Shown piece after piece: positions 53,294 through 54,362 of a stretch of 64,000 nt of DNA. Made by a program: the position numbers and the translations under genes. Source of the DNA: Arcobacter sp. (lineage in GTDB: Bacteria > Campylobacterota > Campylobacteria > Campylobacterales > Arcobacteraceae); contig QKDL01000085.1 in NCBI GenBank assembly GCA_003252105.1, positions 1,106 to 65,105 of the forward strand, in the 5' to 3' direction. The first letter of the stretch is position 1; each line of letters starts with the position of its first letter. The notes under the pieces were generated by a model, which had not been told where the DNA came from, did not search any database, and was given only the letters and a program-made list of their open reading frames with translations.

Positions 53294-54267
53294 TTATTGA
53301 CTATCTTCCCAAATAGAATTTTCCTTCCAATTAATAGGGAATCCCATACTTTCTATTTTTACCTTTGGATATTTTTGTAATAAATCTTTAATTTTTAATT
53401 TAAAATCTAATTCATCCTCTCCAATAGAACTCAAAATATACTCAATAATACTTAAGGCAAAAAAGATTTTATCATTCAATTTATGCTCTTTGTTTTCTTC
53501 TATTCTTTTAATGGATAAAAATTCATCTTTCTTTCTAGGAATTTCAAACTTAACACCTAAAGTTCTATTCCATAATCTACTATGATGTGCACAAATATTT
53601 CTAATAACAGATAAACCATGAAGCCAATTTTTAAAAACTTTTTTATTTATGCCATTAAGACTAGATATTACAGACTCTTGTTCTTCTGTTTTTAATATGG
53701 AATAAACTTTTGATAAAGTACCAAAGGATATCACTTCAACAACTGTCCAAAGAGGTAAATCAGTAGTATGATATTCATCTTTGAAATGTTTTATAAATAA
53801 TTCTTGAGACCTTTTAGTTTCTTCTTTTAAACTAATCATAATATCATCAAAAAAAGATTGACTAGTTTCAAAGTTTTTTTATCTAAATAGCCAAAAGCTC
53901 CATATTTTGAAGCATGACAATATGTAATTTTAGTTCTAAAATATACTTCAATACATTCTATTGCTTCAAATATGATTTTTCTAAGTTCGCAATCAAAATA
54001 ATATAATTGAATAATATCTTCAAAGGTAATATTTTCTAAAAATATATCTTTCTTATCTGAATTTTTTGGATATTGAAAAGGTAAAAAATATGCACTTAAT
54101 CTATAATAATTTATTCTTTGTAGTTTTGATATCGCAAAAGAGTTATTTGAAATTTTTAAGTTTCTACTTTTTAAAATGGCTACTTGCTCTTCATAAGTTT
54201 TAAAAACTTTTTTGTATGAATTTTTTTGATTTTTTATATTTTGAAGTTGTTCTTGCAATTCGGTCAT
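53294..54267 (-). pseudogene. Abi_2/AbiF-family HEPN protein, frameshifted (ORFs 53836-54267 and 53294-53839)
   Basis: FKTYEEQVAILKSRNL, NYYRLSAY, YYFDCELR, LPLWTVVEVISFGTLSK, RNICAH; one extra base near 53849-53880 restores a 324-aa frame. Confidence 0.8.
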
Positions 54268-54362
54268 AAGGAAAACTCCTTCGTTGGCACGTCTAAGAGA
54301 GGTGGAAGGAGTGTGTTACTGTAAGTATACCTTACGTACACTTTAAAGAGACTTAGAATATT
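54268..54362 (-). ncRNA. Pseudoknotted leader RNA of the AbiF-like gene
   Basis: stems TCTAAG/CTTAGA and ACTCCTTC/GAAGGAGT interleave; internal GTAAG/CTTAC hairpin. Confidence 0.6.

Follow-up and report, generated by a model that had tools for sequence, protein, structure and literature searches.

A putative diverged abiF RNA that contains the Shine-Dalgarno sequence precedes a frameshifted AbiF-family toxin gene in the nif cluster of an Arcobacter sp.

The window analyzed here is a stretch of 64,000 nucleotides (nt) from Arcobacter sp. (contig QKDL01000085.1), to which all coordinates refer. It contains, on the plus strand, nifE (51947-53290; Pfam Oxidored_nitro, 5e-88), a gene encoding an AI-2E family transporter (54558-55583; Pfam PF01594, 1.8e-51), and nifN (55702-56997; Pfam Oxidored_nitro, 5.5e-81). 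Between nifE and the transporter gene, on the minus strand, lies a gene of the AbiF/AbiD family (Abi_2, HEPN) encoding a putative toxin (53294-54267), which is convergent with nifE and divergent from the transporter gene. This gene is represented in the open reading frame (ORF) list by two overlapping halves, 54267-53836 (143 aa) and 53839-53294 (181 aa). Directly 5′ of it, on the same strand, are a putative RNA hairpin (54275-54312) and a predicted promoter. The stop codons of nifE and of the AbiF gene are only 3 nt apart (53290-53296), and the two genes face each other, so that transcription from either promoter would continue into the other gene as antisense RNA.

A sequence-only reading of this DNA had proposed that the minus-strand gene encodes a protein with Abi_2 motifs and a RNICAH HEPN site, that it is located within the nif cluster, and that it is preceded by a structured leader. 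Its assignment of the protein and its placement of the gene, between nifE and nifN, were borne out. Both ORF halves match the Pfam profile Abi_2 (PF07751), with E-values of 1.9e-23 and 1.4e-27, the N-terminal half covering positions 2-80 and the C-terminal half positions 101-184 of the 184 positions in the profile. The RNICAH motif, which fits the R-phi-xxxH pattern of HEPN catalytic sites, is found in the second ORF (53839-53294), and when 28 homologues were aligned, HEPN residues R223, N224, C226, A227, and H228 were invariant. The intact version of the protein found in close relatives (P0001, 324 aa) matches PADLOC AbiD with an E-value of 7.4e-84. It also aligns over its full length with chain A of PDB entry 8VZ6 (residues 18-321 of P0001 with residues 7-300 of 8VZ6_A, E 6.7e-45), and the RNICAH motif of the window aligns with RNSCCH in that structure. 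This entry, annotated "Abi family protein," is the sole solved relative that P0001 matched, and reviews identify it as the Prevotellaceae AbiF-ncRNA complex, as summarized in PMC12737573. Judged by homology, the minus-strand gene thus encodes a putative HEPN RNase toxin of the AbiF family.

The reading frame of the toxin gene is interrupted in a run of seven A (A7; 53874-53880, minus strand), as assessed by alignment with a GenBank metagenome-assembled genome (MAG; L001) and a JGI metagenome (L002). Both of these contigs, which are ∼95.8% identical to the window at the DNA level and display the same gene order (nifE - abi - AI-2E transporter - nifN), have A8 and an intact 324-aa gene encoding P0001. 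The frameshift, which the earlier reading implied by speaking of a frame-restored gene, is therefore present in the window. A real and recent frameshift is likelier than an assembly error, since a single split gene was noticed in the window despite the presence of 112 A/T runs of at least 7 nt. A 1-nt deletion in the A8 run would have broken the toxin gene and left the RNA intact, and because one is broken while the other is intact, the module in this strain reads most likely as a recently inactivated copy.

It is nevertheless possible, although we regard it as rather unlikely, that the toxin gene is functional, either because A7 is an assembly error, because slippage occurs on the A run (transcriptional or −1 ribosomal), or because the run is a phase-variable on/off switch. 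The break falls precisely within a homopolymer, the genome is a 96-contig draft, and a −1 shift on the A run restores the sequence ...DKKNFETSQ... found in the relatives. In addition, the gene shows no further decay, since, the gap of 1 nt aside, it differs from L001 by only 4 substitutions in 975 nt and from P0001 by one amino-acid change. Set against this are the lone split gene among so many homopolymeric runs and the species specificity of the A8 run, which is not kept in other homologues and argues against a selected switch; a conserved contingency tract was rejected on the same basis. Decay is also seen in other homologues, one of which is truncated at 256 aa (L015) and one of which is fragmentary (L029). 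The former, which is 73% identical, has a frame break (L015:3001-3771) and represents another inactivated copy. The latter, from one Arcobacteraceae MAG, contains three abiF-like RNA copies within 2.5 kb (1489-1539, 1718-1768, and 3868-3919), the first of which has no start codon after it, and the neighboring Abi_2 frames are fragmentary. It looks like a decaying tandem array.

The gene and its RNA form a cassette of ∼1.2 kb (53284-54509), a species-specific insertion that the nearest other species of the genus lacks. In that species (L107, G402), homology to the window stops at 53283 and resumes at 54510. No terminal direct or inverted repeats were found at the cassette ends, where there are only AT-rich chance matches. 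The gene and its upstream intergenic region are 99.3% identical to L001, compared with 93-96% for the flanking nif and transporter genes, and this difference, together with a lower G+C content, suggests that the cassette spread recently, by horizontal transfer or a recombination sweep. Within the genus (L107-L118), the nifE-nifN interval varies, two genomes having the genes side by side and others having a gap that contains the AI-2E transporter gene and differing hypothetical genes (e.g. one encoding ∼495 aa, or two encoding ∼140 and ∼237 aa). The transporter gene is present in the gap in 7 of the 12 other genomes of the genus that were examined, and in three genomes neither nifE nor the AI-2E gene is found within 5 kb upstream of nifN. 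In one genome of the genus, the nifN homologue (L104; G418:C1:716124-717419) is reported with an internal TAA. The other AbiF loci that we fetched all lack nifE, nifN, and the AI-2E gene. That the cassette lies between nifE and nifN is due to insertion into a variable gap and does not point to a function in nif biology.

To characterize the leader, 79 loci encoding AbiF relatives were fetched and their upstream regions cut out. Among these, 35 Campylobacterota leaders could be aligned with virtually no gaps across the ∼75 nt that precede the start codon (alignment A4). The order of elements in A4 is a −10 box, a gap of 6-7 nt, AACA(C/T)A, an 8-bp P1 arm, CAC, and an 11-nt loop that starts with a constant CUCU followed by 7 variable nt; after the loop come GUG, CCAA(C/A), and the 3′ arm of P1, with a short U-rich tail leading to the start codon. 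In the window, the corresponding hairpin (54275-54312, minus strand), which is defined by pair counts in the 35 sequences, minimum free energy (MFE; −13.2 kcal/mol), and a covariance model described below, consists of the P1 5′ arm ACTCCTTC (54312-05), the P2 5′ arm (54304-02), the loop (54301-291), the P2 3′ arm (54290-88), an internal loop CCAAC (54287-83), and the P1 3′ arm GAAGGAGT (54282-75), which is also the Shine-Dalgarno (SD) sequence. Across the 35 leaders, P1 is paired in 97.5% of the cells, with compensatory CG↔UA exchanges at four of eight pairs, and P2 is invariant and paired in 100% of the cells. All the sequence words named in the earlier reading are found on the minus strand where it placed them, including an ATG at 54267 that leaves a 7-nt spacer, and its stem between anti-SD (54312-05) and SD (54282-75) is real, conserved, and does bury the SD. 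Likewise, the leader is richer in G+C (47%) than the gene (23.6%) and the window (29.1%), as it had noted. The U-tract after P1 is weak in the window (five U in 8 nt), which makes a discrete, terminated small RNA uncertain. In the loci from Myxococcota and in some from Campylobacteria (L051-L053, L065, L091, L092, and L094), an extra hairpin is inserted after the CUCU of the loop, so the variable part of the abiF loop tolerates large insertions.

Upstream of the hairpin is a predicted −10 box, TATACT (54324-54329, minus strand; A4 columns 52-57), in which A at position 2 and T at position 6 are invariant in the 35 sequences. It was omitted by a simple promoter scan because that scan demands a −35 match. 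Bacillota loci display a TTGACA-N17-(−10)-N6-AACAG-motif layout, and the first abiF motif of Clostridioides difficile RCd22 starts at +9 from a transcription start site (TSS) mapped by RACE (bioRxiv 10.1101/2025.04.15.648962). Because this spacing between promoter and motif is kept in the window, transcription is predicted to start at ∼54317, i.e. at the beginning of AACA (54317-14). Most Arcobacteraceae and Sulfurimonas leaders also harbor a TAAAG box, which in the window is at 54342-54346 (A4 columns 36-40), 11 nt upstream of the −10 hexamer. Its spacing differs from the canonical −35 distance, and it may be a phylum-specific promoter element or the site of a regulator.

The abiF RNA motif was reportedly described in 2017, and AbiF with its ncRNA was described as a type III toxin-antitoxin (TA) system in 2025. 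The Rfam model of this motif (RF03085; 37 nt, gathering score of 37 bits) does not recognize the window element, as cmscan returned no RF03085 match at E ≤ 10 in either 3 kb or 81 nt around the leader. Matches to Rfam P14, OrzO-P, and CRISPR-DR27 near the leader (E ∼1-8) were dismissed as chance. Similarly, there was no gathering-level match in 20 loci, all or nearly all from Campylobacterota, and none of 13 Campylobacteria genomes scored above the cut-off, the best value being 24.4 bits. On the other hand, RF03085 matches directly upstream of distant homologues in Paenibacillus, other Bacillota, Bacteroidota, and Ignavibacteria. We therefore used a covariance model built from the Campylobacterota leaders alone (R1), which matches the window at 54269-54319 with 67.4 bits. 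R1 finds the RF03085-positive loci at the same coordinates (E 5e-4 to ∼0.03), and it also finds Myxococcota and other loci at the expected place before an Abi_2 gene, with E-values of 2.5e-5 to ∼0.1 overall. Reciprocally, in two Campylobacteria genomes RF03085 matches the R1 site below threshold, with 24.4 and 20.2 bits. In a cross-phylum alignment of R1 matches, 95.4% of the cells are paired and 9 of 11 pairs show compensatory changes, although this alignment is model-fitted and so favors the structure somewhat. The middle pair of P2, for example, is AU in 28 sequences and GC in 19.

Comparison of the RF03085 consensus, CCCGCC-A-AGC-CUCUCAACGAU-GCU-CAAAUC-GGCGGG, with the window element, CUCCUU-C-CAC-CUCUCUUAGAC-GUG-CCAACG-AAGGAG, shows that the helices, the bulge, the loop length, the CUCU start, and the 3′ internal loop are common to both. 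The window thus displays the abiF architecture, with P1 (6+ bp), P2 (3 bp), an 11-nt CUCU loop, a 3′ internal loop of 5-6 nt, and a U-rich tail, and shares with RF03085 the 5′ AACA. The position is also shared, immediately ahead of an Abi_2 gene that is read from the same strand, and just past the promoter, if the predicted TSS is correct. The differences are that P2 is CAC/GUG in the window rather than CGC/GCG, and that P1 is pyrimidine/purine-biased, i.e. anti-SD/SD-like. Taken together, the reciprocal R1 and RF03085 matches, the cross-phylum pairing, and the shared architecture indicate, at the level of sequence and covariation, that the anti-SD stem is P1, the outer stem, of a diverged abiF RNA. 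The general idea of an AbiF-family toxin with a conserved leader RNA is hence supported, the leader being homologous to the known abiF antitoxin RNA.

The whole genome from which the window originates contains one copy of R1, and a weak R1 match elsewhere in the window (29874-29911, E 0.4) was considered due to chance. R1 matches were found in 13 of 401 sampled Campylobacteria genomes, representing 11 of 64 genera, and in the loci of 10 of 12 further genomes the Abi_2 gene begins 2 nt past the match. Two Campylobacteria genomes (L090 and L093) contain a good abiF-like RNA match mid-locus with no detectable adjoining Abi_2 gene. These may be orphan antitoxin RNAs or remnants.

The relationship between the hairpin and the ribosome-binding site (RBS) varies between phyla. 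In the window, the SD GAAGGAGU (54275-54282, minus strand) is the 3′ arm of P1, with the ATG 7 nt later. In Campylobacterota leaders in general, this arm is the only SD-like element before the start codon, at a distance of 4-8 nt, and 2 of the 35 leaders have no SD-like element at all. In Bacillota loci, a U-run follows the hairpin, then comes a separate GGAGG, and the start codon is 20-30 nt further on. Bacteroidota loci lack an SD, and their spacer is ∼17 nt. Similarly short distances (11-13 nt), without a canonical SD, are seen in L042 and Myxococcota, so compaction is not strictly unique to Campylobacterota. As far as can be judged from these leaders, the conversion of the P1 arm into a canonical SD is unique to the Campylobacterota clade. 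While AbiF with its ncRNA is a known type III TA system of the phage-defense kind, what is particular here is therefore the diverged RNA and the embedded SD, both of which are clade-specific.

Three related systems can be compared with this locus. In the Prevotellaceae PbAbiF-AbiFr complex (PDB 8VZ6; Zilberzwige-Tal et al. 2025, as summarized in PMC12737573 and PMC13064643), the ncRNA binds each AbiF monomer and a single-stranded bulge blocks the HEPN site, and AbiF processes its ncRNA, according to the summary in PMC12737573. The window shares with this system a full-length homologous protein (E 6.7e-45) with a RNxCxH HEPN motif, and a cis-encoded hairpin directly 5′ of the gene that consists of P1, P2, a CUCU loop, and a 3′ single-stranded internal loop. 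It differs in that its RNA has diverged past RF03085 detection, in that the 3′ arm of its 8-bp P1 is a canonical SD adjoining the AUG, whereas Bacteroidota loci lack an SD and have the longer spacer given above, and in that its gene is frameshifted. In the AbiF_Cd-RCd22 module of the C. difficile phi027 prophage (Saunier et al. 2025, bioRxiv 10.1101/2025.04.15.648962), an Abi_2 toxin is co-transcribed with an upstream abiF-motif RNA beginning a few nt after the TSS, as is predicted here. Neutralization by RCd22, which acts in cis and in trans, requires stem pairing but not a particular stem sequence (bioRxiv 10.1101/2025.04.15.648962), which fits the covariation of the window-type leaders. However, two abiF motifs are present in RCd22, along with a Rho-independent terminator and an RBS that are separate from them, the RBS being 168 nt from the TSS. 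The locus in the window has a single motif, lacks both a separate terminator and a separate RBS, and has a leader that is ∼50 nt long, counted from the predicted TSS. Finally, Lactococcus lactis AbiD1, another toxin of the AbiD/F group, has a leader stem-loop that sequesters the RBS and lowers translation (Bidnenko et al. 2009, PMC2661086). Both leaders thus carry an RBS-sequestering stem, but that of AbiD1 is weak, AU-rich, and downstream of a terminator hairpin, whereas in the window it is the conserved abiF hairpin itself that contains the SD.

On the basis of these findings, we propose with good confidence that the locus is an AbiF cassette of the type III TA/abortive-infection kind, with a diverged abiF hairpin as putative antitoxin, an SD within P1, and no pseudoknot, and that it is most likely inactivated in this strain. 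The −10 box at 54329-24 most likely starts transcription at ∼54317, and the first ∼45 nt of the transcript would fold as an abiF hairpin, with P1 of 8 bp, P2 of 3 bp, a CUCU-N7 loop, and a CCAAC internal loop. By homology with PbAbiF-ncRNA and RCd22, this hairpin would be an RNA antitoxin that binds and blocks the HEPN RNase dimer. In this clade the only SD of the gene is the 3′ arm of P1, 4-8 nt ahead of the AUG, so folding of the antitoxin most likely holds translation of the toxin down in cis as well. Binding of AbiF to its own leader would strengthen this translational lock. A more tentative extension, which we put at somewhat less than even, is that the antitoxin hairpin and the translation-initiation region are a single element through which AbiF autoregulates its synthesis, an RNA of ∼40 nt being antitoxin, operator, and weak terminator.

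A simpler explanation would be that the hairpin has a cis-regulatory role only in this clade, as an SD-sequestering or attenuator stem that silences a toxic gene, and is not a protein-binding antitoxin. The SD lies inside P1 in the homologous leaders, an RBS-sequestering leader structure has been documented for AbiD1 (PMC2661086), and the Rfam model misses the window element, all of which would be compatible with this scenario. However, a simple SD mask would not need the unpaired positions that are invariant or nearly so, namely the CUCU of the loop, the CCAA(C/A) internal loop, and the 5′ AACA. [quoted passage not shown] We consequently view a purely cis-acting hairpin as improbable.

The sequence-only reading had offered a more elaborate structure, i.e. 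a leader of ∼90 nt in which two interleaved stems, TCTAAG (54357-52) with CTTAGA (54297-92) and anti-SD with SD, form an H-type pseudoknot that may act as both antitoxin and translational lock, type III TA antitoxins being pseudoknots. When covariation was assessed in the 35 homologues, only the anti-SD/SD stem held. The TCTAAG/CTTAGA stem is paired in 42.9% of the cells, and a GTAAG/CTTAC hairpin that had also been placed in the leader (54335-31 / 54325-21) is paired in 35.4%, both at chance level and with no coherent covariation in either case. When complements of the loop were sought freely in the 60-70 nt upstream, 0 of 35 sequences were significant in a shuffle test, and the 6-nt complement in the window has p ∼0.08. 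A near-identical loop (CTCTCTTAGAA) occurs in L027 without an upstream partner. With respect to the TSS predicted from the invariant −10 box, TCTAAG falls at approximately −41 to −36, and the −10 box itself lies within the span of the GTAAG/CTTAC hairpin. Since these elements are upstream of, or across, the −10 box and neither pairing is conserved, the TCTAAG strand and the GTAAG hairpin are most likely promoter DNA, and the predicted RNA shrinks from ∼90 nt to a hairpin of ∼40 nt. As in ToxIN/AbiQ, an RNA antitoxin would neutralize an RNase toxin by direct binding, which is proposed for the window by homology, but the toxin folds are unrelated and the window has no supported pseudoknot and no tandem repeat array. 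A TRF search for a ToxI-like array returned only low-complexity rows, and the analogy with ToxI-type pseudoknots was dropped because it is inapplicable without such an array. Although both complementary 6-mers do exist in the window, and transcription of both could in principle begin at a weak promoter-like site further upstream (54442-54415), a pseudoknotted leader is thus very hard to credit.

The reading that we favor, an abiF-like hairpin with an embedded SD, has several implications. A clade of Campylobacterota carries an abiF RNA that goes undetected by the Rfam model (35 loci aligned, and matches in 13 of the 401 sampled genomes), and its abiF-like structure has strong covariation support. 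For annotation, this accounts for a GC-rich "leader" in a nif cluster, and it identifies the nifE-nifN gap as an insertion hot spot that plays no evident part in nif biology. Some interest attaches to natural variation in how RNA and protein are wired in the AbiF-ncRNA module, since this module has been proposed as the ancestor of Cas13-crRNA. The antitoxin hairpin appears to have absorbed the RBS, creating a compact case in which the RNA could be both antitoxin and translational operator. If this is true, AbiF would bind an SD-containing hairpin of its own mRNA, the toxin would be autoregulated at the level of translation, and any trimming by AbiF at the hairpin's 3′ side would sever the SD from the ORF.
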